Under the pieces are notes generated by a model that ran no database searches, was not told where the DNA came from, and saw only the letters and a program-made list of their open reading frames with translations. From contig NC_016803.1 in the NCBI RefSeq assembly GCF_000189295.2, positions 1,920,001 through 1,952,000 of the forward strand: a DNA stretch of 32,000 nucleotides, read 5' to 3'. Below are positions 4,556-30,402 of this stretch, piece by piece (positions within the stretch are counted from its first letter, which is position 1; each line of letters starts with the position of its first letter). The position numbers and the translations under genes are program-made. This DNA is from Pseudodesulfovibrio mercurii (GTDB lineage Bacteria > Desulfobacterota > Desulfovibrionia > Desulfovibrionales > Desulfovibrionaceae).

Positions 4556-4780
4556 TGAACCCCCATCCCCCATTCCTTCCTAAACTTTTTGTCGCCGCTA
4601 CGCGGGGTCATAGCGCGCAAGAGCACCCTCTTCCACCCACCGTTCCAACACGTCGCCGTGACAAATTCCTTGTCCCCCGTCCCTCCCGGCGGCGTGGGCA
4701 ATCGTTACGAAGGGTTCACGCCGGGCGGCCCCCCGCCGATTCCTCCGCGCAACACCTCCCCCCTCTCCCGCTTTCCACAC

Positions 4781-4812
4781 GAAAAAGGCGCGTCCCGTTG
4801 CCGGGGCGCGCC
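4781..4812 (-). terminator. Rho-independent terminator of the chemoreceptor gene
   Basis: The minus strand reads GGCGCGCCCCGGCAACGGGACGCGCC followed by TTTTTC. It lies about 25 nt downstream of the MCP stop (4839). Confidence 0.7.
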
Positions 4813-4838
4813 TGGTTTTCCCGAGGGGGAGGCTGGGG

Positions 4839-6728
4839 TTAGAAGTGTTCGAAGTCGTCCTGGTCGGACCCGCCGGAAGAGGCGGTCAGGGCCGGGGCGG
4901 GGGTACGGGTGGCCACGGTGCGCTTGGCGGACCGGGCGTAATTGGCGTCCCGGCGCAGCTGGAAGTAGGCCACGGTCTGCTGGAGCTGAATGGCCTGTCC
5001 GGAGAGTTCCTCGGAGGTGGAGGAGGTCTCTTCGGACGCGGCGGCATTCTGCTGGATGACGCGGTCCAGTTCGGTGGTGGCGGTATTGATGTCCCGGGCC
5101 CCGGAATTCTGTTCCTGGGTGGAGGCGGTGATTTCCTGGATGAGGTCCGAGGTCTTCTTGATGTCCGGGACGAGCCGTTCGAGCATCTTTCCGGCGCGGT
5201 TGGCCACGGTCATGCTGGAGGCGGACAGCTCGCTGATTTCGGCGGCGGCGATGCCGGACCGTTCGGCGAGCTTGCGCACTTCGGCGGCGACCACGGCGAA
5301 GCCCTTGCCGTGTTCACCGGCGCGGGCGGCCTCGATGGCGGCGTTGAGGGCCAGGAGGTTGGTCTGGCGGGCGATCTCCTCGATAATGGAGATCTTTTCG
5401 GCGATGTCGCTCATGGCGTTGACGGCCTCGGCCACGGCCTCGCCGCCCTCCTGGGCGTCCTTGGCGGCCTGTGCGGCCAGAGCCTCGGTCTCCTTGGCGT
5501 TGGCTGCGGTGGCGTTGATGCTGGAGCTCATCTGTTCGATGGCGCTGGACAGCCGTTCCACGCCTCCGGCCTGGGCGGTGGCGCCCTGGGCCAGGGCCTC
5601 GGCGGTGGCGGACAGTTCCTCGGCCCCGGAGGCCACGTTCTCGCTGCCGGACTGGATGTCTTCGACGACCTTGCCGATGCTGTCCACCATGGCCTCGAAC
5701 GAATCGCGCAGCCGGGCCAGTTCGCCGCTGAAGCGGCCGGTGAAGTCCACGGACAGGTCGCCGTGGCTGACCAGCTCCGACTTCTCGACGATGATGCCGA
5801 GCGGCTTGGACACGAGCCTGCGGATGATCACGAAGACCAGGGCGAGGATGACGATCAGGGCCACGCCGCCCGCCAGGATCAGGCGGTATTGGAGCTGTTC
5901 GGCCTCATGGAGGAAGTCGGACCGCTCGGCGGACAGGGCCACGATCCAGCCGGTGCGCTTGACCTGGCCGAAGGCCATGTACTTGACCGCGCCCTGCCAT
6001 TCGTACTGGATGAAGCCGTTCTTCTGGCGCAGCCCTTCCTGGATGAAGCTCTTGTCGGAGAGGTCCTTGAAGATGAGCGAGGCGTCCGGGTGGGCCAGGA
6101 TCTTGCCGGTGGAGTCATACATGTAGCAATAGCCGTTGTCGCCGACCTTGATGGGCGCGAGGTAGTCGGAGAAGGCCTCGCCCAGGACGGACATGCCCAC
6201 GTAGCCGACGGTCCGGCCGTCGCGCTTGACCGCGCGGACAAAGGCGACGCGCGGCTTGTTGGTGGCCGGGGACAGGCTCACTTCGGAGATGAACTCGTCC
6301 TGGCCGTCGGTCATGATCGCCTTGTAATAGGGCCGGGAGCTGTAGTCCTGACCCCGGCCGTCCTTGTTGGTGGTGACCACGCTGATGCCCTTGGCGTCGT
6401 GCACGAACAGGGATTCGAGCATGGGGTCCTGGGCCTTGGCCCTCTGGAGCCAGGCCTCGGCCTGTTGCCAGTCGCCGTCCGCGGCGGCCTCGATGACCTC
6501 GGCCGAGGTGGCGGCCAGGCCGAGGAAGCGCATGCGGTCCTCGATCCAGCCGTCCAGGGTGGCGGTGACGCTGCGCGTGTTCTGGCTGAGGGTCTTGTCC
6601 ACGATGGACAGGGTCAGGTCCTTGGTGCCGATGGATACGGAAATCAGGAAAAAGACGACCAGGGCCAGCATGAACAGGGCCAGCATGGCCACCAGCCGCT
6701 GTCCGATCCCGACATTGGAAAACTTCAT
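4839..6728 (-). CDS. Methyl-accepting chemotaxis protein with a periplasmic double-Cache-like sensor, HAMP and MCP signalling domain
   Basis: 629 aa. There are two TM segments ([20 protein letters not shown] and [23 protein letters not shown]) flanking a roughly 250-aa sensor region. The highly conserved MCP hairpin is present ([41 protein letters not shown]). SD GGGGGA lies upstream of the ATG at 6728. Confidence 0.92.
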
Positions 6729-7036
6729 GATATCCCCCTTGGTTTATAGTCCGTATCAATCATATATGCATATTTGTCACGCCTGCGCCATTATTCCTTA
6801 AGGAACCCATCAAATTTATAAAGATCACGCCGACGCGTTATAGAGGGCATGAACCGGCCCACGAGGAGGCGCGCCCGCGGGTTGAAAAATTTGGCCCTGC
6901 GCCCCCCTTCCCTGGAAAAAGTTTAAATTCTTGTACCGATGTCCGTCCCAACGACCGGGTTCTGTGGCTGGCAACTGTGCGTGCAACATACTTGAATAAT
7001 ATGACAAAAAAATTTTATTACTTTCCTTTCGAGATT

Positions 7037-7052
7037 TGGCACGGCCAGTGCA
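7037..7052 (+). promoter_or_regulatory. Candidate sigma-54 (-24/-12) promoter
   Basis: TGGCAC-GGCCA-GTGCA has exact GG-N10-GC spacing and one mismatch to TGGCAC-N5-TTGCW. An A/T-rich tract (7005-7025) immediately upstream could act as a bend or IHF-type region. Confidence 0.55.
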
Positions 7053-7062
7053 ATAAGATAGG

Positions 7063-7123
7063 CATCTTCCTTCTTTTGCACCGAGAAAGTCACAGGCCTC
7101 CGCAAGGAGGCCTTTCTCGTTTT
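7063..7123 (+). ncRNA. Candidate sigma-54-dependent small RNA (about 60 nt)
   Basis: The predicted TSS is about 12 nt after the -12 GC. The transcript would read ...CAUCUUCCUUCUUUUGCACC followed by a terminator hairpin and U-tract. No start codon with an SD occurs in the interval. The pyrimidine stretch CUUCCUUCU (7066-7074) is complementary to AGGAAG/GGAGG-type SD sequences. Confidence 0.4.
7083..7123 (+). terminator. Rho-independent terminator (caps the candidate sRNA)
   Basis: GAGAAAG-tcac-AGGCCTCC-GCAA-GGAGGCCT-TTCTC forms an extended stem followed by GTTTT. It has plus-strand polarity, and no plus-strand CDS lies upstream. Confidence 0.65.
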
Positions 7124-7170
7124 GGGGGACGGGAAGGTTTCGAAAAAGGCGCGGGGCGTTTTTCGGGCGC

Positions 7171-7202
7171 AAAAAAGCCGGTCCGGGCAACCCCGAACCG
7201 GC
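7171..7202 (-). terminator. Rho-independent terminator of ilvD
   Basis: The minus strand reads GCCGGTTCGGGGTTGCCCGGACCGGC followed by TTTTTT, about 25 nt after the ilvD stop. Confidence 0.7.
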
Positions 7203-7227
7203 TCTGTCGCGGGCCTGGCGGGCCCGG

Positions 7228-8889
7228 TTATTTCTCGTAGACCGCGCCGCGCGAGGCCGAGGTGACCAGCTTGGCGTAGCGCCGCAGGAACGGCGACTTG
7301 ATCTCCTTGACCACGGGCTTGTGGGTCTTGCGGCGTTCGGCCAGTTCGGCCTCATCCACCAGCAGGGTGATCTTGCGGGCCGGGATGTCGATCTCGATGC
7401 GGTCGCCCTCGCGGATCAGTCCCACCGGGCCGCCCGCAGCGGCTTCGGGCGAGACGTGGCCGATGGCCGCGCCGCGCGTGCCGCCGGAGAACCGGCCGTC
7501 GGTGATCAGCGCCACGGAGCCGCCGAGCCCCATGCCGGAGATGGCCGAGGTGGGGGTGAGCATCTCGCGCATGCCGGGGCCGCCCTTGGGGCCTTCGTAG
7601 AGGATGACGACCACGTCGCCGGGCTTGATCTCGTTGCCCAGGATGGCAGCCACGCCCTCCTCCTCGCTGTTGAAGACCCTGGCCGTGCCGGTGTTGTGCA
7701 TCATCTCCGGGGCCACGGCGGACTGCTTCACGCAGCATCCCTCGGGGGCGATGTTGCCGTACAGGATGGCGATGCCGCCCTCCTCGGAGTAGGGGTTGTC
7801 GATGGGCCGGACGATCTCGTGGTTGGAGACGTGCGCATTGAGGTCCTTCAGGTTCTCGCCCAGCGTCTTGCCGGTGACGGTCATGACGTCCAGGTTGAGC
7901 AGGTCGCGCTTGGCCAGCTCGGACATGACGCCGGGGATGCCGCCCGCCTCTTCCAGCTCCTCCATATAGTGGGGACCGGCCGGGGCCAGCTTGCACAGGT
8001 TCGGCGTTTTCATACTGATTTCATTGAACATCTGTAGTGAAAGATCAAGTCCGGCCTCGGCGAACAGGGCGGGCAGGTGCAGGGTGGTGTTGGTGGAGCA
8101 GCCCAGCGCCATGTCCATGGTCACGGCGTTGTGCACGGACTTTTCGGTAACGATGTCGCGCGGACGGATGTTCCGTTCGAGCATCTCCATGACCTGCATG
8201 CCCGCCTTCTTGGCCAGCCGGATGCGGGCGGACATGACCGCCGGGATGGTCCCGTTGCCGGGCAGGGCCAGGCCGATGGACTCGGACAGGCAGTTCATGG
8301 AGTTGGCCGTGAACATGCCCGAGCAGGAGCCGCAGGTGGGGCAGGCCCCGGCGGTGTACGCCTCCAGTTCCTCCTCGGTCATCTGGCCCGCGCGGACCTT
8401 GCCCACGCCCTCGAACACGGTGATCAGGTCCGAGGTGCGCTTGTGTCCGGCCAGCATGGGGCCGCCGGAGACGATCACGGCCGGGATGTTCAGGCGGAGC
8501 ATGGCCATGAGCATGCCGGGCACGATCTTGTCGCAGTTGGGAATGCAGACCAGGGCGTCGAAGGGATGCGCCGTGGCCATGATCTCCACGGAGTCGGCGA
8601 TGATCTCGCGGCTGGGCAGGGACATCTTCATGCCCTCGTGGTTCATGGCCAGGCCGTCGCATACGCCGATGGCAGGAAATTCCATGGGGGTGCCGCCCGC
8701 CATGCGGATGCCCGCCTTGACGGCTGCGGCGATGGTGTCCAGATGAATGTGCCCGGGAATGATCTCGTTCTGGGCGTTGCATACGCCGATGAGCGGCCTG
8801 TCCATTTCTTCCCTGGTCAGCCCGTCCGCATACAGCAGCGAACGGTGCGGGGCCTTCTCCAATCCACCAGTCATCTTCTTGCTACGCAT
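7228..8889 (-). CDS. ilvD: Dihydroxy-acid dehydratase
   Basis: 553 aa. The N-terminus is ...[39 protein letters not shown]. It carries the Fe-S ligand region [11 protein letters not shown] and the C-terminal [20 protein letters not shown], all typical of IlvD. SD GAGAGG is present. Confidence 0.97.
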
Positions 8890-9968: not shown

Positions 9969-10706
9969 CTAGCGGCTCGAGGAGAAGGTGCCGCTGGGGA
10001 ACATGCGCGTGGGCTTGGTTACGGCCGAAGTGTTCTCGGGCACGACCATCTCGGCGTCGATGTCGCCGATGTGCTCGCGGTAGGCGATGATGTCCTGGAC
10101 CGTGCACATGGCCATCTGGTGCTTGATGGCGAAGGCCACGATCTCGTGCAGCTTGGCCATGGTCCCGTCCGGGTTGGTCAGCTCGCAGAGCACGCCGCAG
10201 GGCGCAAGCCCGGCCAACCGCGTCAGGTCCACCGTGGCTTCGGTGTGGCCGCCGCGCTCCAGCACGCCGCGCGGCCTGGCCGCCAGCGGGAACACGTGGC
10301 CCGGGCTGTTCAGGCTCGCCGGGGTGGCGTCGGGCGCGATGGCCGCCTTGATCGTGGTCAGACGGTCGGCCGCCGACACGCCCGTTGTCACGCCCTCGGC
10401 CGCCTCGATGGAGATGGTGAAGGCCGTGTTGTAGGCGCTGGTGTTGTTTTCGACCATCATGGGCAGGCCGAGGGACTTGATCTTCGCCTCGGTCAGGCAG
10501 AGGCAGACGATGCCGCTGCACTCGCGGATGAGCATGGCCATCTGGGGCACGGTCAGGGTCTCGGCGGCGAAGATGAGGTCGCCTTCGTTCTCCCGGTCGG
10601 CATTGTCCGTGACCAGCACGCCCTGCCCCTTGCGCAGGGCCTTGAGCGCTTTTTCGACCCGCGAAATCGGGCCACCGAACTGTTTGAGGATTGGCTGATC
10701 CATCAT
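9969..10706 (-). CDS. ribB: 3,4-dihydroxy-2-butanone-4-phosphate synthase
   Basis: RibB signatures are present: [19 protein letters not shown] and [11 protein letters not shown]. It is stand-alone, with no GTP cyclohydrolase II domain, and has a roughly 30-aa non-conserved C-terminal tail. The start may be the second ATG (10703), which has better SD spacing. Confidence 0.93.
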
Positions 10707-10829
10707 GAATCTCCTTACAGGATTATGAATGAATCAGGGCGCTTGGACAGGCGGACGGACGCAAGCGCGCCCGTCGTGACGCCGTCTCGCTCGCGCGGTC
10801 GCGCTGGCAAGGGGACGCCGGACTGCCTC

Positions 10830-10969
10830 ATTCTCTTCACTCCGGACTGTTACCGTCGGCCCCGGATTCGCACCGGGTCTGCTGGACCCCCTCCACCCGG
10901 AGGGGCGCTCGCGGGCTCACCGGCAAAGCCGGATCACCGCCGGTGGGGACTTCCACCCCGCCCTGAGAA
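10830..10969 (-). promoter_or_regulatory. FMN riboswitch (RFN element) in the ribB leader
   Basis: The minus strand reads TTCTCAGGGCGGGGTGGAAGTCCCCACCGGCGGT...GAGCCCGCGAGCGCC...GGTCCAGCAGACCCGGTGCGAATCCGGGGCCGACGGTAACAGTCCGGAGTGAAGAGAA. This matches the conserved RFN core blocks, and P1 closes as TTCTC/GAGAA. Confidence 0.93.
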
Positions 10970-11186
10970 CAAGTTGCCCTAGGCATAAGACCGAACTGAC
11001 CGGGAAGTCAACCAATACCGGCACATTTCATAGGGGTTTTCCGGGACCGGCCGGGGGACGGGGCGCAACCGGCCGAAGACATGGACGTTTCCAGGAACGG
11101 GAAAAGCGTCGAGGGCGGGGCGACGGCTCAAAAAGACGGCCCGGCCGCCTTGCTCCCCCGCGCTTTTCCGTGTAGTGCTCACAGCC

Positions 11187-11543: not shown

Positions 11544-11558
11544 CGACAAGGAGTGACC

Positions 11559-12218
11559 ATGTCCAAGGAAGTGACCATAGTCCGCAACGTCCTCGAGGCC
11601 AACGACCGTCTGGCCGAAGAGCTCCAGAACAAATTTCGGGTCAAGAAGATCCTCTGCCTGAACCTGATGAGTTCGCCGGGCGCGGGCAAGACCACCCTGC
11701 TCGAACGGACCCTGACCGACCTCAAGGATGAATTCAAGATGGCCGTCATCGAGGGCGACCTGCAGACCGACAACGATGCCCAGCGCGTGGCCGCCACCGG
11801 GGCCCAGGCCGTGCAGATCAACACCGAGGGCGGCTGCCACCTGGATTCCGGCATGGTCATGGACGCCCTCAAGGCCATCGACACCGACGGCCTGGACATC
11901 CTGTTCGTGGAGAACGTGGGCAACCTGGTCTGCCCGGCCGAGTTCAACGTGGGCGAGGACTACAAGGTCACCCTGCTGTCCGTGACCGAGGGCGACGACA
12001 AGCCCGAGAAGTACCCGTTCATGTTCCACATCTCCGCGGTCATGCTCCTGAACAAGGTGGACCTGCTGCCCTACGTGGATTTCGACCTGAAAAAGGCCGA
12101 GGCCCACGCCAGGAAGCTGAACAAGGACATCCAGGTCATGCCCATCTCCGCCCGCACCGGCGAGAACATGGACCAGTGGTACGCCTGGCTGCGCGAGAAG
12201 CGCGCCGAGAAACTGTAA
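11559..12218 (+). CDS. hypB: Hydrogenase nickel incorporation GTPase HypB
   Basis: The ATG at 11559 lies 5 nt after AAGGAG (11548-11553). P-loop SSPGAGKTTLLE, the CH motif region EGGCHLD, ENVGNLVCPA and the NKVDL G4 motif are present. There is no N-terminal His-rich stretch. Confidence 0.93.
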   Translation: MSKEVTIVRNVLEANDRLAEELQNKFRVKKILCLNLMSSPGAGKTTLLERTLTDLKDEFKMAVIEGDLQTDNDAQRVAATGAQAVQINTEGGCHLDSGMVMDALKAIDTDGLDILFVENVGNLVCPAEFNVGEDYKVTLLSVTEGDDKPEKYPFMFHISAVMLLNKVDLLPYVDFDLKKAEAHARKLNKDIQVMPISARTGENMDQWYAWLREKRAEKL

Positions 12219-12333
12219 GCAGAGAAAATTTTCCGTCGCAATTCAATCCGTCCATAGTGACACTAACTCTATGGTCGACTGATAGTCGAGAAAACATACA
12301 ATTGCGCCATGTTGAAATGGCTAAAAGTCAATA

Positions 12334-12368
12334 ACAGAAAGCCGTCTTTGACGGTTTTCTGTTGTTTT
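12334..12368. terminator. Rho-independent terminator in the hypB / HEPN-gene convergent spacer
   Basis: ACAGAAAGCCGTC-TTT-GACGGTTTTCTGT forms a 13-bp stem with one G-U pair, followed by TGTTTT on the plus strand. The minus strand has a weaker T-rich tail. Confidence 0.65.
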
Positions 12369-12430
12369 GCATTAAGCTGTGGAGGCAAGACTCTAACGGA
12401 GGGCTGGTTGCCAGGGTTGACAAAATCAAC

Positions 12431-13105
12431 TTAGGGCCGAATGCCTTTATATTTGTCATACTTTGCCCTCAAATATAACTGCTGGACAGCTGTGTTTTCG
12501 ATATCAGCACCAAAGCGATCTATGGAGGAATAGACAAAATCAACAACTTCGATCGCATACCTTTGGGGTATGTCTATCAGTTCGCCATGAGCGATTGCGC
12601 ACCTATTCATTACGAGTTCATTAATAAAGGGTGCTCGTTGTGACCAATGTTCGGAGTACTCCATTCCAATAATTGAACATATGTTTTCAAAAACGTCGGA
12701 GTTAAGGTTTGATTCTGTATCAATCGCAGGTGCCTCTGAGTATTTTAACCCTTCTAGTACCTCCGATTTATAAAATCGGATCAAATCAAGATGAGGGGCA
12801 ATACGCTTGGTAGCCAAAACAGATGTATTAATTTTATTTTTACAACAAATTGCGTGAAAATTATCGGTCATGTCTGAAACTGCTGGTTTTAAATGTGTGA
12901 GATATGTCAAGTATGACATTGCACTATGTTTAATAAAACCTTCCCAGTGTGCATAGGCGAACACAACAGAAGACCTAAAAAAGAACTGACGAAATCCAAC
13001 CCTTCCATCAGAAATGAGGCTTTTGTGAGTTATTAATTCTTTTTTCCGTTTAGCACTATTTGCTGCTAAACAATTAATTAACTCTTCTAGCGATCTTATT
13101 TTCAT
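12431..13105 (-). CDS. HEPN-domain protein (Rx4H motif), probably the MAE_28990/MAE_18760-like HEPN family; predicted RNase effector
   Basis: 224 aa. NRCAIAHG contains the HEPN catalytic signature R-x4-H in the C-terminal third of a predicted all-helical protein. The start ATG overlaps the upstream gene's TGA (ATGA at 13102-13105). The family name is from memory and is not searchable here. Confidence 0.7.
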   Translation of the reverse strand: MKIRSLEELINCLAANSAKRKKELITHKSLISDGRVGFRQFFFRSSVVFAYAHWEGFIKHSAMSYLTYLTHLKPAVSDMTDNFHAICCKNKINTSVLATKRIAPHLDLIRFYKSEVLEGLKYSEAPAIDTESNLNSDVFENICSIIGMEYSEHWSQRAPFINELVMNRCAIAHGELIDIPQRYAIEVVDFVYSSIDRFGADIENTAVQQLYLRAKYDKYKGIRP

Positions 13106-14220
13106 TGTTGGAAAAGACTTACCCCAAACGCAATTGTCTGAGGTATTCTTGTTGAAGCTCTTACGCCTGATCCCACAGACTTACCAAGTCCTTCTGTTAT
13201 CTTCCCCCAAAGCTCTTTATGCTTTTCCTGGAACTCATCGATATTAGGCTCACTACCTCCACGAAGGATGTGAATCCCTAACCCTATGGCGACAACTTCG
13301 AAAATTGATATTAACGAAGCACCGTAATACACTTTTTTATCTGGATTGTATTTGCGGAATGAATTCTCCCCCAAGGCTGCATCTAAAAATGTAAACACTT
13401 TGGTAAACACATCCAGCACACTATGCAATTGGTTATGATCATTTATGATTTTTAATATTGCAGTTGTTAAATAGTCGCCAAGTTCGCTTATACCTGCTAA
13501 ATCCTCGTAAGATGATAATGCCAAGACAATAAATCGTGTTACCAATTCAAGGTCATATGATTCATTTATCTGTTTTTCCGAGAACAGGAATGAGCCCTTA
13601 AAAGCATCCAAGCTGGCCATGTCTTGCATCCAAGTCAAGGCGTCTTTATTCGTCATCAATATTATGCAATTTCTAACTTCTTGATCGGTTGCGTTTGAGC
13701 CGCCAGTATTCAATCTTTGAAATATTTCGTACTTTGCAATAGCATCACTTGATTTTTTTATTATCGATATATCAATTCTTGATCGTTTGATTTTAATTCT
13801 TGCTGCTTCTGGAAGTTCAATGTTGTCATCATCATTTTCTTCGACACTCCACCTCTTTCCTTCTAAGTCAGGGAGATATCTTGTCTTTACTAAAGTAAGG
13901 GGTGGCTTCTTATTGCCGTTTTCATCCACATACTCGCCCATCACCTCTAGAACAGTTGACAACCTTTGAAGACCATCAATAACCTCCCATTTTGAATCCT
14001 CTTTTTCAGCAACAAAAACGGGTGGTATTGGTATTCCCAAAAGAAATGACTCGATTAGCTTGGACTTTTGCTCCAGCTCCCATCTGAAAAATCTTTGGAA
14101 TTCTGGGTGAATATCTATTTCTTTGTCCTTATACATTGTGACCAATTCATTGATCGACATTGAATAAGAGTCCGCAGAGACTGTTGCGGAATGTTGCTCA
14201 ATTTCATCTATAAGCGGCAT
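13102..14220 (-). CDS. DUF262 (ParB/Srx-like, GmrSD N-terminal type) domain protein lacking a DUF1524/His-Me nuclease domain
   Basis: 372 aa. The three DUF262 hallmark motifs are present: HPEFQRFFRW, VIDGLQRLST (DGQQR box) and FQRLNTGGSNAT. The roughly 170-aa C-terminal region has no recognisable nuclease motif. SD GAGGA lies 7 nt upstream of the ATG at 14220. Confidence 0.88.
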   Translation of the reverse strand: MPLIDEIEQHSATVSADSYSMSINELVTMYKDKEIDIHPEFQRFFRWELEQKSKLIESFLLGIPIPPVFVAEKEDSKWEVIDGLQRLSTVLEVMGEYVDENGNKKPPLTLVKTRYLPDLEGKRWSVEENDDDNIELPEAARIKIKRSRIDISIIKKSSDAIAKYEIFQRLNTGGSNATDQEVRNCIILMTNKDALTWMQDMASLDAFKGSFLFSEKQINESYDLELVTRFIVLALSSYEDLAGISELGDYLTTAILKIINDHNQLHSVLDVFTKVFTFLDAALGENSFRKYNPDKKVYYGASLISIFEVVAIGLGIHILRGGSEPNIDEFQEKHKELWGKITEGLGKSVGSGVRASTRIPQTIAFGVSLFQQ

Positions 14221-14455
14221 TTGGGATTCCTCTGTTTTATTTTTTTGTATTTATTAGCAAATGTTCTCCTCCGTGCCAACTGCTCATTTATCTTATGGGA
14301 GTGTGTACTTCAATTTAATTATAATTTTATCATATTCTCACACAAAATAATAGATATTTTAAAACACTGCATCTTACAATGTTTGATATTTGTCGTGGGC
14401 TAATTTTTCGCCCTTTTTGATTGGCTTCTCGTGGACGGCGGGGTAGGGTGGACCC

Positions 14456-15787
14456 ATGCCGTTTCCCAGAGACCTGCCCCTTGAGGCCGTGTTCGCCTCC
14501 ATCGCCGACGGACTGTTCACCGTGGACGCCGAGTGGAACGTGACCTATTTCAATGAGGCCGCCGAGCGCATCACCGGCATCTCCCAGGCAGACGCCCTGG
14601 GGCGCAAGTGCTGGGACGTGTTCCGCTCGTCCCTGTGCGACGGCCAGTGCGCCGTGAAGTCCTGCATCCGCAAGGGCGGGCGCATCGTCAACAAGTCCAT
14701 CTTCATCGTCCGCTCGGACGGCACGACCCTGCCCATCTCCATCTCGGCCTCGCCCCTCAAGAACAAGGACGGCGTGGTCGTCGGCGGGGTGGAGACCTTC
14801 CGCGACCTGACCGACATCCACGTCTCGCGCCAGCAGGCCAAGGACATCTACCGCTTCGAGAACATCGTGGGCCGCTCCCAGGCCCTGGACAAGATCTTCC
14901 GCATCCTGCCGCAGATCAGCCAGTCCGAGGCCACCACCCTGCTGCTCGGCCAGAGCGGCACGGGCAAGGAGCTCTTCGCCCGGGCCATCCACTCCCTGAG
15001 CGCGCGCAAGGACGGGCCGTTCGTGGCCGTGAACTGCGGTGCCCTGCCCGACACCCTGCTCGAATCCGAGCTGTTCGGGTACAAGGCGGGCGCCTTCACC
15101 GACGCGCGCACGGACAAGCCGGGCCGGTTCGAGCTGGCCGACGGCGGCACGGTCTTCCTGGACGAGATCGGCGACATGCCCCAGAACCTCCAGGTCAAGC
15201 TCCTGCGCTTCCTCCAGGAAAAGACCTTCGAGCCGCTGGGCGGCGTGACCCCGGTCAGGGCCGACGTGCGCGTGGTGGCCGCCACCAACCGCAACCTCGA
15301 GGACGCCGTGGCCGAAGGCAGCTTCCGCCAGGACCTGTTCTACCGCCTCAACGTGGTCACCCTGACCCTGCCGCCCCTGACCGAGCGCCAGGAGGACCTG
15401 CCCCTGCTCATCGACCACTTCCTGGCGGAATTCAATGCCCTGCGCAACAAGGCCATCCTCGGGGTCAGCGAGGACGCCATGCACGTGCTCATGCGCCACG
15501 ACTTCCCCGGCAACGTGCGCGAACTGGAAAACATCCTCGAATACGCCTTCATCCTCTGCCCGGACGGGTTCATCCAGGTGGAGCACCTCCCGGAATACCT
15601 CCTGCCCAAGGCCGGACGCCGCGCCGGGTCCGCCGGACTGTCCGGGACCATGGACGCCATCAAGCGCCGCGCCGCCCGCCAGGCCGTGCGCCGCAACAAC
15701 GGCAGGCGCATGGCCGCCTGCCGCGAACTGGGCATCACCAAGGATACCCTGCGCCGCCTCCTGGCCGAGCCCGGCAAGGGCGAATAA
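14456..15787 (+). CDS. Sigma-54-dependent transcriptional activator (PAS sensor - AAA+ - Fis-type HTH)
   Basis: 443 aa. The N-terminal PAS domain has a 4-Cys cluster. Walker A is GQSGTGKE, the GAFTGA-type loop reads GAFTDA, and Walker B is VFLDEIGDM. ESELFGY and the C-terminal HTH (AACRELGITKDTLRRLL) are present. Confidence 0.93.
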   Translation: MPFPRDLPLEAVFASIADGLFTVDAEWNVTYFNEAAERITGISQADALGRKCWDVFRSSLCDGQCAVKSCIRKGGRIVNKSIFIVRSDGTTLPISISASPLKNKDGVVVGGVETFRDLTDIHVSRQQAKDIYRFENIVGRSQALDKIFRILPQISQSEATTLLLGQSGTGKELFARAIHSLSARKDGPFVAVNCGALPDTLLESELFGYKAGAFTDARTDKPGRFELADGGTVFLDEIGDMPQNLQVKLLRFLQEKTFEPLGGVTPVRADVRVVAATNRNLEDAVAEGSFRQDLFYRLNVVTLTLPPLTERQEDLPLLIDHFLAEFNALRNKAILGVSEDAMHVLMRHDFPGNVRELENILEYAFILCPDGFIQVEHLPEYLLPKAGRRAGSAGLSGTMDAIKRRAARQAVRRNNGRRMAACRELGITKDTLRRLLAEPGKGE

Positions 15788-25729: not shown

Positions 25730-28117
25730 CTAGAAGTTGAGCAGGTCGAAGCCGACCTCGAAGCGGTTGTCGCCGGGCTTCTGGCTGTAGGAGAAATGCA
25801 GGGTGTAGCACTCGGCCGCCCAGTCCATGTACAGGGTCCGCTCCAGGTCCTGCTCGTCCACGAAATCGTGGCGGTAGCGGGCCCCCAGGGTGACGGCGTT
25901 GTTGACCTGCCACTCGCCCCCGATCTTGATGATGGACATGTCGTTGTCGCGGGTGCGCTTGTACTCGTCCAGGCTCTTCAGGAAATCGTAGCCCACGTAG
26001 AACTCGCCCAGTCCGTCCTTGTAGAAGCGCAGGGTGTTCTCGCTCTGGGTCATGTCGCCCATGTAGGGCGAGAACCAGTTGCGGGTCAGGATTTCCATGA
26101 AGTTGGCGGGCTTGATCTTCAGCTCGGCCATGACGTCGGAGAACGGCCTGCGCGCGTAGAGGTCGCGCTCGTCGTTGCGCTGGGCCTCGCGGATGTCGTA
26201 GGACTGCTCCACCCGGAAGAGCAGGAAGTCGAGATAGTCCTTGGCCACCCGGGCCGCGGGCTCGCCGTCCGAGCCCGGCGAGAGCACCACCCGCTCGCGG
26301 CGGCGGTCCAGGACGCTGGTCAGGGAGTAGGTCACCTGGTTCAGCCCCTCCACCCGGTCGTCGGTGTCGAAGTAGGGAAGCTTCTCCTGGCCCGTGAGGT
26401 TGTTCCTGTAGGTGTAGTCCAGCCGGGGCATGATCGAGTTCTTCAGGCTGGTCCAGCGGGAGGTCCCGGCCAGGCCGGGGTCCGCGGCCGGGGCCTCGCC
26501 CAGGGCGAAGGTCCGGGTCATCTCCGAAAAGGCCGTGAACCCGCCGGTCCAGAGGGTCCGGGTCTGGAAGCCGTCCTTGATCTTGGTGGTGTCGATGACC
26601 GAATCCCGGCCGCCCGTGCCGACCACGTCCAGGTCGCCCACGGCCTCGCGGGAGCTCAGGGAATAGGCGGTTTCCTGCATGGAGAGCGAGGGGATGACCG
26701 TCAGGAAGCGGCTCTTCAGGGGGTACTTGAGTTCGGGCGAGAGGATCAGACGGTGGCCGGAATCGCCGTAGTTGCGGTGGAAATAGTCGTACTTGGCGTC
26801 CACGGCCCCCTCGAAGCCCGCTCCCAGGGACTGCTGCCAGGCGTAGGCGTTCAGCTCGGGCAGAATCTGGATGGTCGGGTCCTCGCTGCTCGGGTTGTTG
26901 CCGTTGCGGTAGGCCAGGTTCTCGTCGTACTGGGTCAGGCCGACCACGCCGAAGCGGTCCCAGCTGCGGCTGACGTAGGCCTTGCTCAAGCGGTGCAGGG
27001 AGTCCTTGTTCTCTATGTCGCGGCCGAACACGTCCAGAAATTCCTCGCGGGTCTTCTCGTACCCGTCGGGCCCGTACTGGAAGTCGCGCATGTAGTTCTG
27101 GTCCGAGACCACGTCCAGGTCGAGCTTGATCTTCCACTGGGGGCTGCCAAGCCAGCCGTCGTACTTGCCGCGCACCCACCAGCGGTCCCGGTTGGAGCGG
27201 GTCAGGCCGTCCTCCTGGTAGTCCGCCCACTCGTCCGACTCGCTGGTGGCCCGGACCTTGTCGCTCAGGATGTTCGCCTGCCACATGCCCCTGGACGAGG
27301 CGTCCTCGGTGTGGCGGAACTCGACGCCCTGCATGTAGCCGCGCTTGCTCATGTAGTTCTGGTAGAAGGTGGCGTCCATCTCGTCGTTGATGACCCAGTA
27401 GTACGGCAGATTGACCTGGAGGCCGAGCTTGTCCGAGCTGGACACGTAGGGCATGAGGAAGCCGCTCTGCCGGTCCCCCTTGCCGGGCAGGACCATGTAC
27501 GGCCAGTAGAAGACCGGCACGTCCTTGACCCGGAAGGCCGAGCGGTACAGGTGGATGCGGCCGTCGATGGTCACGTCGCCCTCCTCCGTGGTCACGGACC
27601 AGGCGGGCTTCTCGCCCGAGCAGGAGGTCACCTTGGCGTTCTTGAAGGTGTAGGTGTCGCCCACGGCCTTGCCCACGCGCTCGGCCTCCACGTAGACGTG
27701 GGGCTTGGCCATGAACAGCTTGCCGTTCTTGAGCCAGCCGGTCATGTTGTTGAGGTCGAACTCGCCCTCGTCCGCCTGGAGGAAGTCGCCGCCCCAGTGG
27801 GCCCGGATGTTGCCCTTGAGAAAGACCCAGCCCGTGGCCTGGTAGTAGCGCGCGAAGTCGGCGCGCAGTTGGTCCTCGCCCAGGCTCAGGGAGACGTTGC
27901 CGAAGGCCTCCACGTACTCGCTTGTGTGGTCGCCCACCACCCGGTCGGCCGAAAAGGTCCACTCGTCCTGCGCGGGGGCCTGCACGGGCGCATCCGGCAC
28001 GTACTTCCTGACCTTGTTGCGGTCGGGCGTCTTGCCGATGATGGTCCACGGCAGGCACAGCGACAGGACCAGCAGGGTCCCGGCGGCCAGCGATATGCGC
28101 GAAAGCTTGCGTCTCAA
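25730..28117 (-). CDS. lptD: LPS-assembly outer-membrane protein LptD (OstA family)
   Basis: 795 aa with a signal peptide. An OstA-like N-terminal domain is followed by a large aromatic-rich beta-barrel ending in ...FDLLNF (terminal Phe). The only start after the upstream stop is TTG at 28117, with GAAGGA 7 nt upstream. Confidence 0.88.
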   Translation of the reverse strand: MRRKLSRISLAAGTLLVLSLCLPWTIIGKTPDRNKVRKYVPDAPVQAPAQDEWTFSADRVVGDHTSEYVEAFGNVSLSLGEDQLRADFARYYQATGWVFLKGNIRAHWGGDFLQADEGEFDLNNMTGWLKNGKLFMAKPHVYVEAERVGKAVGDTYTFKNAKVTSCSGEKPAWSVTTEEGDVTIDGRIHLYRSAFRVKDVPVFYWPYMVLPGKGDRQSGFLMPYVSSSDKLGLQVNLPYYWVINDEMDATFYQNYMSKRGYMQGVEFRHTEDASSRGMWQANILSDKVRATSESDEWADYQEDGLTRSNRDRWWVRGKYDGWLGSPQWKIKLDLDVVSDQNYMRDFQYGPDGYEKTREEFLDVFGRDIENKDSLHRLSKAYVSRSWDRFGVVGLTQYDENLAYRNGNNPSSEDPTIQILPELNAYAWQQSLGAGFEGAVDAKYDYFHRNYGDSGHRLILSPELKYPLKSRFLTVIPSLSMQETAYSLSSREAVGDLDVVGTGGRDSVIDTTKIKDGFQTRTLWTGGFTAFSEMTRTFALGEAPAADPGLAGTSRWTSLKNSIMPRLDYTYRNNLTGQEKLPYFDTDDRVEGLNQVTYSLTSVLDRRRERVVLSPGSDGEPAARVAKDYLDFLLFRVEQSYDIREAQRNDERDLYARRPFSDVMAELKIKPANFMEILTRNWFSPYMGDMTQSENTLRFYKDGLGEFYVGYDFLKSLDEYKRTRDNDMSIIKIGGEWQVNNAVTLGARYRHDFVDEQDLERTLYMDWAAECYTLHFSYSQKPGDNRFEVGFDLLNF

Positions 28118-28132
28118 GAAAGCGTCCTTCGG

Positions 28133-29113
28133 CTACCTGGACCGGAGGTACTTGTCATCCTTGTCCAAATAATTCTGGACGTAGTCCTTGGCCCCATCCT
28201 CCAGGCTCGTCATTTTGACGGTGCAGCCAGCCGCCCTGAGCTTGTCCATATTCGCCTGGGTAAAATACTGGTATTTATCACGAATCACCTCAGGCATCGG
28301 GATGTACTCGATCTCCGGCTCGCGGTTCATGGCGGCAAACACCGCGTTCGCCAAATCATTCCAGGTCCTTGCAGTTCCCGTACCGACGTTGAAGATGCCG
28401 CCCTTGTCGCGGTGCTCCAGGAACCAGGCCATGATGTCCACGCAGTCCTTGATGTAGACGAAGTCGCGCTTCTGCCCGCCGTGGGGGTATTCCTCGCGGT
28501 AGGACTTGAAGAGCTTGAGCTTGCCGGTCTCGAGGATCTGGGCGTGGGCCTTGCAGATGACCGACTTCATGTCGTCCTTGTGGTACTCGTTGGGCCCGAA
28601 CACGTTGAAGAACTTGAGGGAGACGATCTGGTCGAGGATGCCCGCGTCCCTGGACCAGAGGTCGAAGAGCTGCTTGGAGTAGCCGTACATGTTCAGGGGG
28701 CGCAGCCGGCCGATCTCGGCCTCGTTGTCGTCGAAGCCGAACTCGCCGTTGCCGTAGGTGGCCGCCGACGAGGCGTTGACGAAGCGCGCGTTGTGACCCA
28801 GGCAGAACCGGCAGACGTATTGTGTATAGCGGTAGTTGTTCTCCATGAGGAAGTCCGCGTCCAGCTCGGTGGTCGAGGAACAGGCCCCCATGTGGACGAC
28901 CGCCTCGGTCTCGAACGGGTCGTCGCCCTCGAGGATGAACTTGAGGAACTGGTCGCGGTGCAGGTAGTCCTGATACTTCAGCCCCACGAGGTTGTTCCAC
29001 TTTTCGCTGGTGGACAGGTTGTCCACCACCAGGATGTCGTCGATGCCCATCGTATTGAGCTTCCAGACCATGGCGCTGCCGATGAATCCCGCGCCGCCGG
29101 TGACAATGTACAT
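28133..29113 (-). CDS. hldD: ADP-L-glycero-D-manno-heptose 6-epimerase
   Basis: The start is MYIVTGGAGFIGS (Rossmann GxxGxxG) at 29113, with AAGGAG upstream. YGYSK is the catalytic Y-x3-K. The roughly 326-aa length is typical of RfaD/HldD. Confidence 0.93.
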   Translation of the reverse strand: MYIVTGGAGFIGSAMVWKLNTMGIDDILVVDNLSTSEKWNNLVGLKYQDYLHRDQFLKFILEGDDPFETEAVVHMGACSSTTELDADFLMENNYRYTQYVCRFCLGHNARFVNASSAATYGNGEFGFDDNEAEIGRLRPLNMYGYSKQLFDLWSRDAGILDQIVSLKFFNVFGPNEYHKDDMKSVICKAHAQILETGKLKLFKSYREEYPHGGQKRDFVYIKDCVDIMAWFLEHRDKGGIFNVGTGTARTWNDLANAVFAAMNREPEIEYIPMPEVIRDKYQYFTQANMDKLRAAGCTVKMTSLEDGAKDYVQNYLDKDDKYLRSR

Positions 29114-29346
29114 GGCTTCTCCTTGCTGCCTGGATGACGCCCGGGGGCGCAAACGCTTCTACATACTGTGTTCAAGGTCGAGACGCAACCGCAAGGAGTT
29201 GCCCCTTTTTCTGGACAGCGTTTCGCATTCTGTTACTATTTGCCCTGTCCGCCCTTGCGGCGGACATACGTTTTGCGTATATGGTAGTTAATGGTCCCCA
29301 TATAAGGAACCCATGCTTTGCCTGAAATCTCTAAAGGAGTGAGATC

Positions 29347-30402
29347 ATGACACAATCTAGAAAACTGCTTTTGTTCATGCTGGCCGCGATGTTGACTTTC
29401 TCCTTCGCGTTCGCCGCCACGGCAAATGCCAAGATGGTCAAGAAAGTCGATAACTTCATCCTCTTCGTTGACCAGTCCGGCTCCATGGCCATGCGCAACG
29501 CCGACGGCATCAAGAAAATCGAAAAGGCCAAGAGCGACATGCTCGCCCTGAACGCCGCTATCCCGGCGCTCGACTACAATTCGGCCGTGGTCCTGTTCGC
29601 CCCCTTCGAAGTCCAGTGCGCGCCCAAGGCGTATTCCGACGCCAACGTGGCCGCCGCGGTCAACGCCATCGACTCCGAGTACCAGATCTTCAACCGCCGC
29701 ACCCCCATGGGCGCCGGTCTTGATGAAATCAACCAGGTGGTCGGCCAGATGTCCGGCAAGACCGCGCTGATCATCTTCACCGACGGCGAGTCCAACTACG
29801 GCACCGACCCGGTGGCCGTGGCCAAGAACCTGTACGCCAAGTACGGCTCCAACCTCTGCGTCCACGTGGTCAGCTACGCCGACACCGCCGAGGGTCAGGC
29901 CGTGGTCGACGGCATCCGCGCCGCCTTCCCGTGCTCCGTGGCCGCCAACGGCGCGACCTTCGCCGACGCCACCGCCCTGAACCAGTACGCCAAGGCCGTC
30001 TTCTATGAGGACGTGGCCGAGCCCGCTCCGGCCCCGGCTCCGGTCGTCGTGGCCCCGGCCCCGGCCAAGGAAGTGGTCACCTTCAACCTGAACTTCGGCT
30101 TCGACAAGTACCAGATCACCGATGAGATGGTCCCCGTGCTGGAACAGGCCAAGATGATCCTCGAGGAAGACACCGCAGCCACCTACGAGATCTCCGGCCA
30201 CACCGACTCCACCGGCACCGAGGCCTACAACCAGGGCCTGTCCGAACGCCGCGCCAACTCCGTCATGAAGTGGCTGACCGACAACGGCGTCAGCGCCGAC
30301 CGCCTGGAAGCCAAGGGCTACGGCGAACTCGCGCCCAAGTATGACAACGCCACCAAGGAAGGCCGCAAGCTGAACCGCAGGGTTGAAATCCAGACCAAGT
30401 AG
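29347..30402 (+). CDS. Secreted vWA (MIDAS) domain - Pro/Ala linker - OmpA-like peptidoglycan-binding domain protein
   Basis: Signal peptide ...FSFAFAATANA. MIDAS motif DQSGSM (DxSxS), with downstream T and D residues (IIFTDGESN). Linker EPAPAPAPVVVAPAPA. The OmpA_C signature is GHTDSTGTEAYNQGLSERRANSV...NRRVEI. SD AAGGAG is present. Confidence 0.88.
   Translation: MTQSRKLLLFMLAAMLTFSFAFAATANAKMVKKVDNFILFVDQSGSMAMRNADGIKKIEKAKSDMLALNAAIPALDYNSAVVLFAPFEVQCAPKAYSDANVAAAVNAIDSEYQIFNRRTPMGAGLDEINQVVGQMSGKTALIIFTDGESNYGTDPVAVAKNLYAKYGSNLCVHVVSYADTAEGQAVVDGIRAAFPCSVAANGATFADATALNQYAKAVFYEDVAEPAPAPAPVVVAPAPAKEVVTFNLNFGFDKYQITDEMVPVLEQAKMILEEDTAATYEISGHTDSTGTEAYNQGLSERRANSVMKWLTDNGVSADRLEAKGYGELAPKYDNATKEGRKLNRRVEIQTK

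Follow-up and report, generated by a model that had tools for sequence, protein, structure and literature searches.

Two adjacent genes, here called A and B, lie in a stretch of 32,000 nucleotides (nts) from Pseudodesulfovibrio mercurii (formerly Desulfovibrio sp. ND132; NC_016803.1, positions 1,920,001 to 1,952,000). We refer to this whole stretch as the window, and its features are given by their positions within it. Gene A encodes a DUF262 protein, and gene B (DND132_1736) encodes a HEPN protein. The pair is best explained as a PD-T4-2-type defense module with a ribonuclease (RNase) effector, a reading to which we give a probability of roughly 0.65. Because PD-T4-2, a validated phage defense system, has the same architecture, the pair is not a new kind of system but a divergent, common subfamily of a known one. 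The reading is supported by the domains and motifs of the two proteins, the fold of A, the homology of A, the Pfam family of B, the experimental validation of PD-T4-2, the conservation of the pair, and its signature of mobility. The two genes and their junction are as follows.

13102-14220, minus strand: gene A, 372 amino acids (aa); DUF262 (GmrSD_N) domain at about residues 25-187 and helical C-terminal domain at about residues 190-372

12431-13105, minus strand: gene B, 224 aa; all-helical HEPN protein (RiboL-PSP / MAE_28990) with R168-x4-H173

13102-13105, minus strand: ATGA stop/start overlap, A followed by B, as read in the sequence

On the minus strand the junction reads TTCCAACAATGAAAATAAGA, in which the TGA of A (13104-13102) overlaps the ATG of B (13105-13103); it can also be given as CAACAATGAAAATAAGA, with the ATGA at 13105-13102. 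By this overlap, A and B are translationally coupled.

Protein A matched one Pfam family above the curated cutoff, PF03235 (GmrSD_N/DUF262; E = 2e-26, residues 25-187). No other Pfam family matched at E ≤ 1, and DUF1524 was not found. The protein contains HPEFQRFFRW, IDGLQRLST, and FQRLNTGGSNAT, all of which fall on invariant columns of the family alignment; F41-Q42-R43 and D82-G83-L84-Q85-R86 are among the invariant residues. The AlphaFold model, with a predicted local distance difference test (pLDDT) score of 90.2, is alpha/beta in its N-terminal half and helical in its C-terminal half. The top Foldseek matches to this model were BrxU (7p9k, probability 1.0), the ParB-N structure of pNOB8, SspE (6jiv, E = 0.013), and ParB proteins bound to cytidine triphosphate; the sequence of A searched against solved structures gave only a marginal match to BrxU (E = 0.29). 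Among the PADLOC models, A matched NsnA (1.1e-60, profile positions 41-322 of 385) and PD-T4-2_A (2.2e-28), and all 32 of the 32 aligned relatives of A likewise matched NsnA best (1e-60 to 6e-63), ahead of PD-T4-2_A. A is assigned to phrog_2598, and no NCBIfam model matched either A or B. Protein A is thus a ParB/Srx-fold DUF262 protein with a helical C-terminal domain and is a full-length homolog of PD-T4-2A and NsnA. Its C-terminal region is predicted to be of the NsnA-C/"ParBDB" type, and the protein is predicted to be a DNA sensor that binds nucleoside triphosphates (NTPs).

Protein B scored above the cutoffs of two Pfam families, PF18735 (HEPN_RiboL-PSP; E = 3.9e-25, 89.3 bits) and PF18737 (HEPN_MAE_28990; E = 6e-17, 62.9 bits). 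In its motif NRCAIAHG, residues R168, H173, and G174 are invariant among 39 homologs, as are R20, E23, Y51-A52-H53-W54-E55-G56, and N133-L134 elsewhere in the protein. The AlphaFold model (pLDDT 93.5) is all-helical, with nine helices. A search of the sequences in the PDB with the profile of B gave no usable match. Since neither that search nor the structure search described below identified a solved relative, B is assigned to HEPN on its Pfam profiles and catalytic motif, which do not have an independent fold match beside them. Relatives of B matched the HEPN models of Cas13a and Csx1/Csm6 weakly, and B itself matched phrog_22325 (1.7e-37) but no PADLOC model at E ≤ 1; a tblastn search of the INPHARED phages with B found nothing. 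From its family and motif, B is predicted to be an RNase effector.

A preliminary description of this locus, made from the sequence alone, had already reported the 372-aa and 224-aa open reading frames (ORFs), their ATGA overlap, and the motifs of both proteins. All of these were confirmed by the ORFs and the reading of the sequence, and the quoted motifs were present in the translations on invariant columns. The assignments made there also held: PF03235 is the only Pfam match of A, as expected for a DUF262 protein without DUF1524, and the two HEPN families above cutoff and the invariant R168/H173 agree with a HEPN protein carrying an Rx4H motif. The HEPN-clan similarity or fold expected of the small protein was obtained as Pfam similarity but not as a Foldseek fold match.

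Comparison with PD-T4-2 and other DUF262 systems

PD-T4-2, from E. coli ECOR65, was recovered in a functional selection (Vassallo et al. 2022, Nat Microbiol, PMC9519451). It is listed as "DUF262, HEPN" in Table S1 of that study, in which HHpred assigned PF03235 to its A protein and PF18735 (97.8%) and PF18737 (96.9%) to its B protein. Carried, together with its own promoter, on a low-copy plasmid, PD-T4-2 shields K-12 from T4, and its deletion in ECOR65 dramatically raised T4 plaquing (PMC9519451). An H127A mutant of PD-T4-2B, altered in the HEPN histidine, was constructed, and the study states that, in the four systems tested, the conserved residues that were changed are essential (PMC9519451). 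A review lists PD-T4-2 under both DUF262 and the PF18735 HEPN family (PMC10952713), and PD-T4-2, Dazbog, and Menshen have been named as DUF262 systems that lack DUF1524 (PMC10952713, PMC12065111).

A search with the published lambda-red deletion primer located PD-T4-2 in 17 complete E. coli genomes. In E. coli 2009C-3133 (NZ_CP013025.1 3547901-3559950), A is at 6001-7095 and B (167 aa) is at 7100-7603 of that stretch. The two genes are cargo between psu and the integrase gene of a P4-like satellite that has psu, ogr/delta, primase, and integrase genes and is integrated beside ssrA. In this genome, B is annotated as a "HEPN domain-containing protein," and the RefSeq gene for A is 33 nt longer than the start in the deletion primer of Vassallo et al. 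implies.

The P. mercurii pair resembles PD-T4-2 in its overall organization, which is two co-oriented, closely packed genes, DUF262 and then HEPN, with neither DUF1524 nor a third component, and both pairs have an AT-rich, mobile context. The A proteins are 28% identical over 235 aa (BLASTP E = 6e-24), and hhalign aligned them at 99.5% probability over 294 columns that include the C-terminal domain. In both, the canonical DGQQR reads DGLQR, and both belong to phrog_2598. The B proteins both pass PF18735, for which the cutoff is 28.4 bits (89.3 bits for B and 31.4 bits for PD-T4-2B), and both have the R-x4-H motif: R168/H173 in B corresponds to R122/H127, invariant in a family alignment of 30 PD-T4-2B members, and H173, the equivalent of H127 in PD-T4-2B, is itself invariant in the B family.

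There are also differences. B has 224 aa and PD-T4-2B has 167 aa, and the conserved motifs are YAHWEG and ESNLN in B but SKLAL-EL-CGW-E in PD-T4-2B. The genes overlap by 4 nt in P. mercurii, whereas a 4-nt gap separates them in PD-T4-2. PD-T4-2 is in a P4-like satellite at ssrA, whereas the P. mercurii pair is in a bare 2.2-kb insertion without mobility genes.

The preliminary description had stated its belief that such a pairing had been noticed in comparative genomics, and this was correct: Anantharaman et al. (2013, Biol Direct) recorded members of the RiboL-PSP-HEPN and MAE_28990 families as "in operon with ParB." That study was computational only and assigned no phenotype. B belongs with these families in that it scores above the cutoffs of both Pfam models; it differs from them in having no fusion to L-PSP and no conserved methylase. 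The accompanying statement, that no system of this architecture was known to have been characterized experimentally, was mistaken, since PD-T4-2 was validated both by cloning and by deletion from its native ECOR65 genome. The description had also allowed that the pair might already belong to a named system. This is so to the extent that the architecture is that of PD-T4-2 and the A proteins are homologous, but B is missed by PD-T4-2_B.

Among other known systems, the DUF262 proteins of SspE, BrxU, and GmrSD couple NTP binding and hydrolysis to the recognition of DNA and to effector activation (PMC10952713). A shares with them an N-terminal DUF262 ParB/Srx fold with the motifs of the NTP pocket. 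In contrast to these proteins, A has no C-terminal DUF1524 His-Me deoxyribonuclease (DNase), and its partner is a separate HEPN protein. Because this HEPN protein is the sole catalytic partner, the predicted substrate is RNA, not DNA.

A second comparison is with Menshen (NsnABC; Millman 2022), for which the proposed model is that NsnA, a ParB-like protein, senses DNA and controls an RNase effector (Li et al. 2025, NAR, PMC12065111). A has the architecture of NsnA, a ParB-DUF262 domain with a C-terminal helical "ParBDB"-type domain, and the logic proposed for the two systems, a DNA-sensing ParB-like protein governing an RNase effector, is the same. The P. mercurii pair differs from Menshen in that the window has no adjacent NsnB ABC-ATPase (AAA_15/DUF3696) or NsnC inPIN-effector; its effector, a free-standing HEPN protein, is coupled in translation to the sensor. 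A degenerate or minimal Menshen, consisting of NsnA without NsnB and NsnC beside an unrelated HEPN gene, would explain why NsnA is the best PADLOC match of A and of its 32 relatives, but it is highly improbable and we rejected it: a HEPN gene is coupled to A and co-evolving with it in 79 of 80 loci, no gene for an ABC-ATPase or inPIN protein is conserved beside the pair or present in the window, and the A protein of plasmid pLR-27_3, whose pair is the nearest to PD-T4-2, also scores higher with NsnA than with PD-T4-2_A, so that NsnA is just the more inclusive model.

Conservation and spread of the pair

For the species survey we took one genome per GTDB species and seeded the search with the alignment of B alone. 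Among the 600 matched stretches listed, at least 593 loci were confirmed, and 80 loci were kept for analysis. A homolog of A was directly upstream of B on the same strand in 79 of these 80 loci; in the lone exception, B was about 400 nt from the end of the contig. The pairing of A and B is far beyond chance, and the co-conservation that the preliminary description had proposed to check proved to be essentially absolute. Pairwise identities among the A proteins and among the B proteins were correlated (r = 0.87, Mantel p = 0.001, 70 pairs); thus, A and B evolve as a unit.

The junction between the genes was a 4-nt overlap in 33 of 74 loci and a 1-nt overlap in 10 more. Locus L001, the sole separated pair of the 80, with A and B 1.3 kb apart, was considered as a variant architecture and was rejected because an IS630-like transposase (ORFs of 146 and 216 aa, positions 4706-5905) lies within the 3' end of A and truncates it.

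No third gene was conserved beside the pair. The largest flanking cluster was found in 9 of 74 loci, with only a few of them from hosts other than Microcoleus-type cyanobacteria. A conserved methylase, suggested in 2013 for MAE_28990, was rejected, no third gene being conserved in the 74 loci. The cassette is therefore self-contained: two genes that are coupled, always adjacent, and co-evolving, with no conserved third gene needed.

The hosts of the pair included Cyanobacteria, Dehalococcoidia, Bacteroidota, Acidobacteriota, Planctomycetota, and Alpha-, Beta-, and Deltaproteobacteria, and additionally Bacillota, Actinomycetota, and Deinococcales. In 67 of 74 loci the GC content of the pair was at least 5 points under that of its flanks, and it was never above it (mean 0.41 versus 0.53). 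Such low GC across host phyla may mean that transfer has been frequent and recent, or that the module is intrinsically AT-biased. An exhaustive profile search returned 2,929 cluster representatives of the B family at E ≤ 0.001, including 984 at E ≤ 1e-30; among the 150 representatives listed, nearly all were single-domain proteins of about 210 to 230 aa.

The pair was also found on mobile elements. The mobilizable Col plasmid CP056768.1 of Enterobacter cloacae (5,724 bp) has full-length A and B across the origin of the record; the pair makes up about one-third of the plasmid, which also has a RelE/ParE toxin-antitoxin (TA) pair. (The PLSDB gene table does not list the A gene of this plasmid.) On plasmid NZ_CP022042.2 of Psychrobacter cryohalolentis, A and B have repM on one side and, on the other, a BsuBI/PstI-type restriction enzyme accompanied by an Eco57I-type methylase; clear defense-cluster contexts such as this were few.

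Two related pairs have different HEPN partners. The P2-like Peduovirus P2_4B2 (LR595873.1 28520-32118) has a DUF262 gene and a MAE_28990-type HEPN gene (381 and 239 aa) near a DNA-cytosine methyltransferase gene, and its HEPN protein is a third HEPN sublineage on the same sensor chassis. The 3.9-kb E. coli plasmid pLR-27_3 has a related DUF262-HEPN pair with a different B subfamily. The B protein of pLR-27_3 scored 66 bits on PF18735 and matched PD-T4-2_B weakly (4.4e-4); compared with the profile of our B family, it aligned only around Rx4H (E = 0.017, probability 2.7%). The A protein of this plasmid, whose pair is the nearest to PD-T4-2, is the one mentioned above that scores higher with NsnA than with PD-T4-2_A. 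Since neither pLR-27_3 nor P2_4B2 provided a bridge to PD-T4-2B, homology between the B lineages is supported at the level of the Pfam family only. Overall, there is a radiation of modules in which a conserved NsnA-like DUF262 sensor is joined to diverged RiboL-PSP/MAE_28990 HEPN partners, with PD-T4-2 as the sole validated example.

Proposed mechanism and rival explanations

If the pair is a PD-T4-2-type module, A would be the sensor, binding nucleic acid and NTP via its DGLQR / FQRxNTGG pocket as in the DUF262 domains of SspE, BrxU, and GmrSD, and it would recognize a cue of infection, most likely invading or modified phage DNA. B would normally be kept inactive by A in a complex, with a fixed stoichiometry resulting from coupled translation. 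Upon sensing, an NTP-driven conformational change in A may free or activate a dimer of B. HEPN RNases act as dimers with composite Rx4H sites (Anantharaman et al. 2013), and such a site in the B dimer would cleave RNA (host and/or phage mRNA, tRNA, or rRNA). Cleavage of RNA would halt phage replication and would probably sacrifice the cell (abortive infection). Relative to GmrSD, BrxU, and SspE, the DNase acting in cis would have been swapped for an RNase acting in trans; relative to Menshen, the ABC-ATPase transducer would be absent. By analogy with these systems, it is reasonable to infer that a sensor NTPase licenses a HEPN RNase. Our confidence in the specific steps of activation is considerably lower than that in a PD-T4-2-type module as such.

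Several points weigh against our reading. For B compared with PD-T4-2B, BLASTP gave E = 4.9, the profile of B against the PD-T4-2B sequence gave E = 0.47, and the alignment of the two profiles covered only the Rx4H helix (E = 0.19); none of the 39 members of the B family matched the PADLOC model PD-T4-2_B at E ≤ 1. Because there is no direct similarity between B and PD-T4-2B, function is transferred to B through shared Pfam membership only. A Foldseek search of the PDB with the model of B gave no significant match to a solved structure. The phage phenotype has been shown for PD-T4-2 only, and we found no mechanistic study of PD-T4-2 in the literature. The interaction of A with B, the NTPase activity, the trigger, and the RNA target are all inferred. 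The neighbors of the pairs were heterogeneous, chiefly metabolic or housekeeping genes, and by a rough count only about 10% matched defense models (mad2, 4; mad3, 2; AriA, 2; and MTase_II, 2; of 88); in the P. mercurii window the neighbors are hyp genes and a regulator. Enrichment in defense islands, another check raised in the preliminary description, was thus weak at best.

Such non-defense chromosomal neighbors would also fit a TA or addiction module, in which B would be a HEPN RNase toxin and A its antitoxin, and the pair would stabilize its carrier plasmid or island by postsegregational killing and would not sense phage. As is typical of type II TA operons, the putative neutralizer precedes the toxin and the genes overlap; the pair takes up about one-third of the 5.7-kb Col plasmid from Enterobacter, alongside RelE/ParE, and a related pair takes up a similar share of the 3.9-kb E. 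coli plasmid; and the analogous MNT-HEPN and ParA-HEPN dyads have been read as TA systems (Anantharaman et al. 2013). However, the large size of A (372 aa), its two domains, its strong conservation, and its invariant NTP-pocket motifs suit an enzyme or sensor more than a labile antitoxin, and the homologous PD-T4-2 gives a phage defense phenotype both when cloned on a low-copy vector and at its native chromosomal site. We therefore regard a TA module as unlikely. Because TA and abortive infection roles are not mutually exclusive, this explanation is in part a subcase of the PD-T4-2-type reading.

A further rival explanation is a type IV-like restriction that depends on modification of the DNA. 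GmrSD and BrxU sense DNA with glucosylated hydroxymethylcytosine (glucosyl-hmC), and SspE senses phosphorothioate DNA. A would similarly sense modified phage DNA, immunity would come directly from DNA damage or blocked replication, and B would act on nucleic acid at the DNA or be only an accessory. The solved folds closest to A are indeed those of BrxU and SspE, the sensing/NTPase half of GmrSD, BrxU, and SspE is DUF262, and T4, the phage on which PD-T4-2 was selected, has glucosyl-hmC in its DNA. Yet no nuclease domain, DUF1524/His-Me or other, is present in A or conserved in its neighborhood. The sole signature of a catalytic effector is the Rx4H of B, a hallmark of RNases, and the equivalent histidine was the residue changed in the H127A mutant of PD-T4-2B, in a study that stated the mutated residues of four systems to be essential. 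We consider type IV-like restriction quite unlikely.

What is at stake is how a DUF262 protein signals to an effector that is not a DNase. DUF262 sensors are a recurring part of GmrSD, BrxU, SspE, Dazbog, Menshen, and PD-T4-2. It is possible, but doubtful enough that we offer it tentatively, that the P. mercurii pair represents a distinct and abundant subtype (about 1,000 to 2,900 B clusters and at least 593 species-representative genomes), probably missed by current defense hidden Markov models, in which a ParB-like, NTP-gated DNA sensor directly switches on a HEPN RNase with no ATPase transducer. If so, the dissimilarity of B and PD-T4-2B would reflect the swapping of effectors on a conserved sensor chassis, comparable to the polymorphism of NsnC in Menshen, and the pair would be the simplest available model for the coupling of DNA recognition by ParB/DUF262 to RNA-targeting immunity. 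Because the subfamily is widespread and strictly two-gene, and because both of its proteins have high-confidence structure models, it is a convenient minimal system. There is also a gap in annotation, in that the PADLOC v2 models would probably leave this PD-T4-2-like subtype uncalled. The pairing itself would not surprise a specialist; the interest that remains is that of a clean minimal case of a PD-T4-2-type system. For the P. mercurii genome, it is an ordinary small defense-type insertion.

The insertion and its surroundings

The other features of the locus are as follows.

12219-14410: low-GC insertion of about 2.2 kb, containing A and B only

14221-14410, minus strand: AT-rich 5' leader and candidate promoter region of the operon, at the upstream edge of the island (from sequence and GC)

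12330-12366: inverted repeat located where hypB and B converge, with 17-nt arms (88% complementary) and a 3-nt loop

11175-12218, plus strand: hypA-hypB, hydrogenase maturation (hypB at 11553-12218), ending 1 nt before the island

14456-15787, plus strand: sigma-54-type regulator, on the other flank of the island

A and B are the only long ORFs in the interval from hypB to the sigma-54-type regulator. The GC content of 100-nt segments was 0.25 to 0.48 within the island and at least 0.59 outside it; across 12500-14500, GC was 0.38, versus about 0.65 in the flanks. At third codon positions, GC was 0.36 in A and 0.33 in B but 0.83 to 0.95 in hypA, hypB, ribB, mrp, and the gene for the sigma-54-type regulator, which bears out the foreign, A/T3-rich codon usage remarked on in the preliminary description. 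From this foreign composition, the A+B cassette was horizontally acquired. No integrase or tRNA gene was found in or around the island, and the window has no tRNA gene. A search for repeats at the island edges found only short families at chance level and no meaningful flanking direct repeats.

A Shine-Dalgarno sequence, GAGGA, is at 14228-14232, 7 nt 5' of the ATG of A. In the leader, the GC content of 100-nt segments was 0.25 to 0.41, and from position 14400 it climbs to 0.59 to 0.69. The promoter scan found no minus-strand site in the leader, where the sole site was on the plus strand (14351-14380), and the number of promoter-like sites across the region (8 observed versus 6.0 expected) was at chance level. 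The leader is thus only a candidate promoter region.

At the other end of the island, a terminator-like site on the minus strand (12354-12342) falls within the hairpin at 12330-12366, which is a probable bidirectional terminator at the downstream island edge. The hairpin could end both of the convergent transcripts, those of hypB and B, and insertion of the island may have supplied or replaced the terminator of hypB.

Elsewhere in the window, a full-length flavin mononucleotide riboswitch (RF00050, 101.7 bits) is at 10826-10974 on the minus strand, 5' of a ribB-like gene (9969-10706, minus strand) whose product is 3,4-dihydroxy-2-butanone-4-phosphate synthase. Two milder dips in GC, at 6001-7500 and 28001-30000, reach 0.57 to 0.60 against a background of about 0.65.

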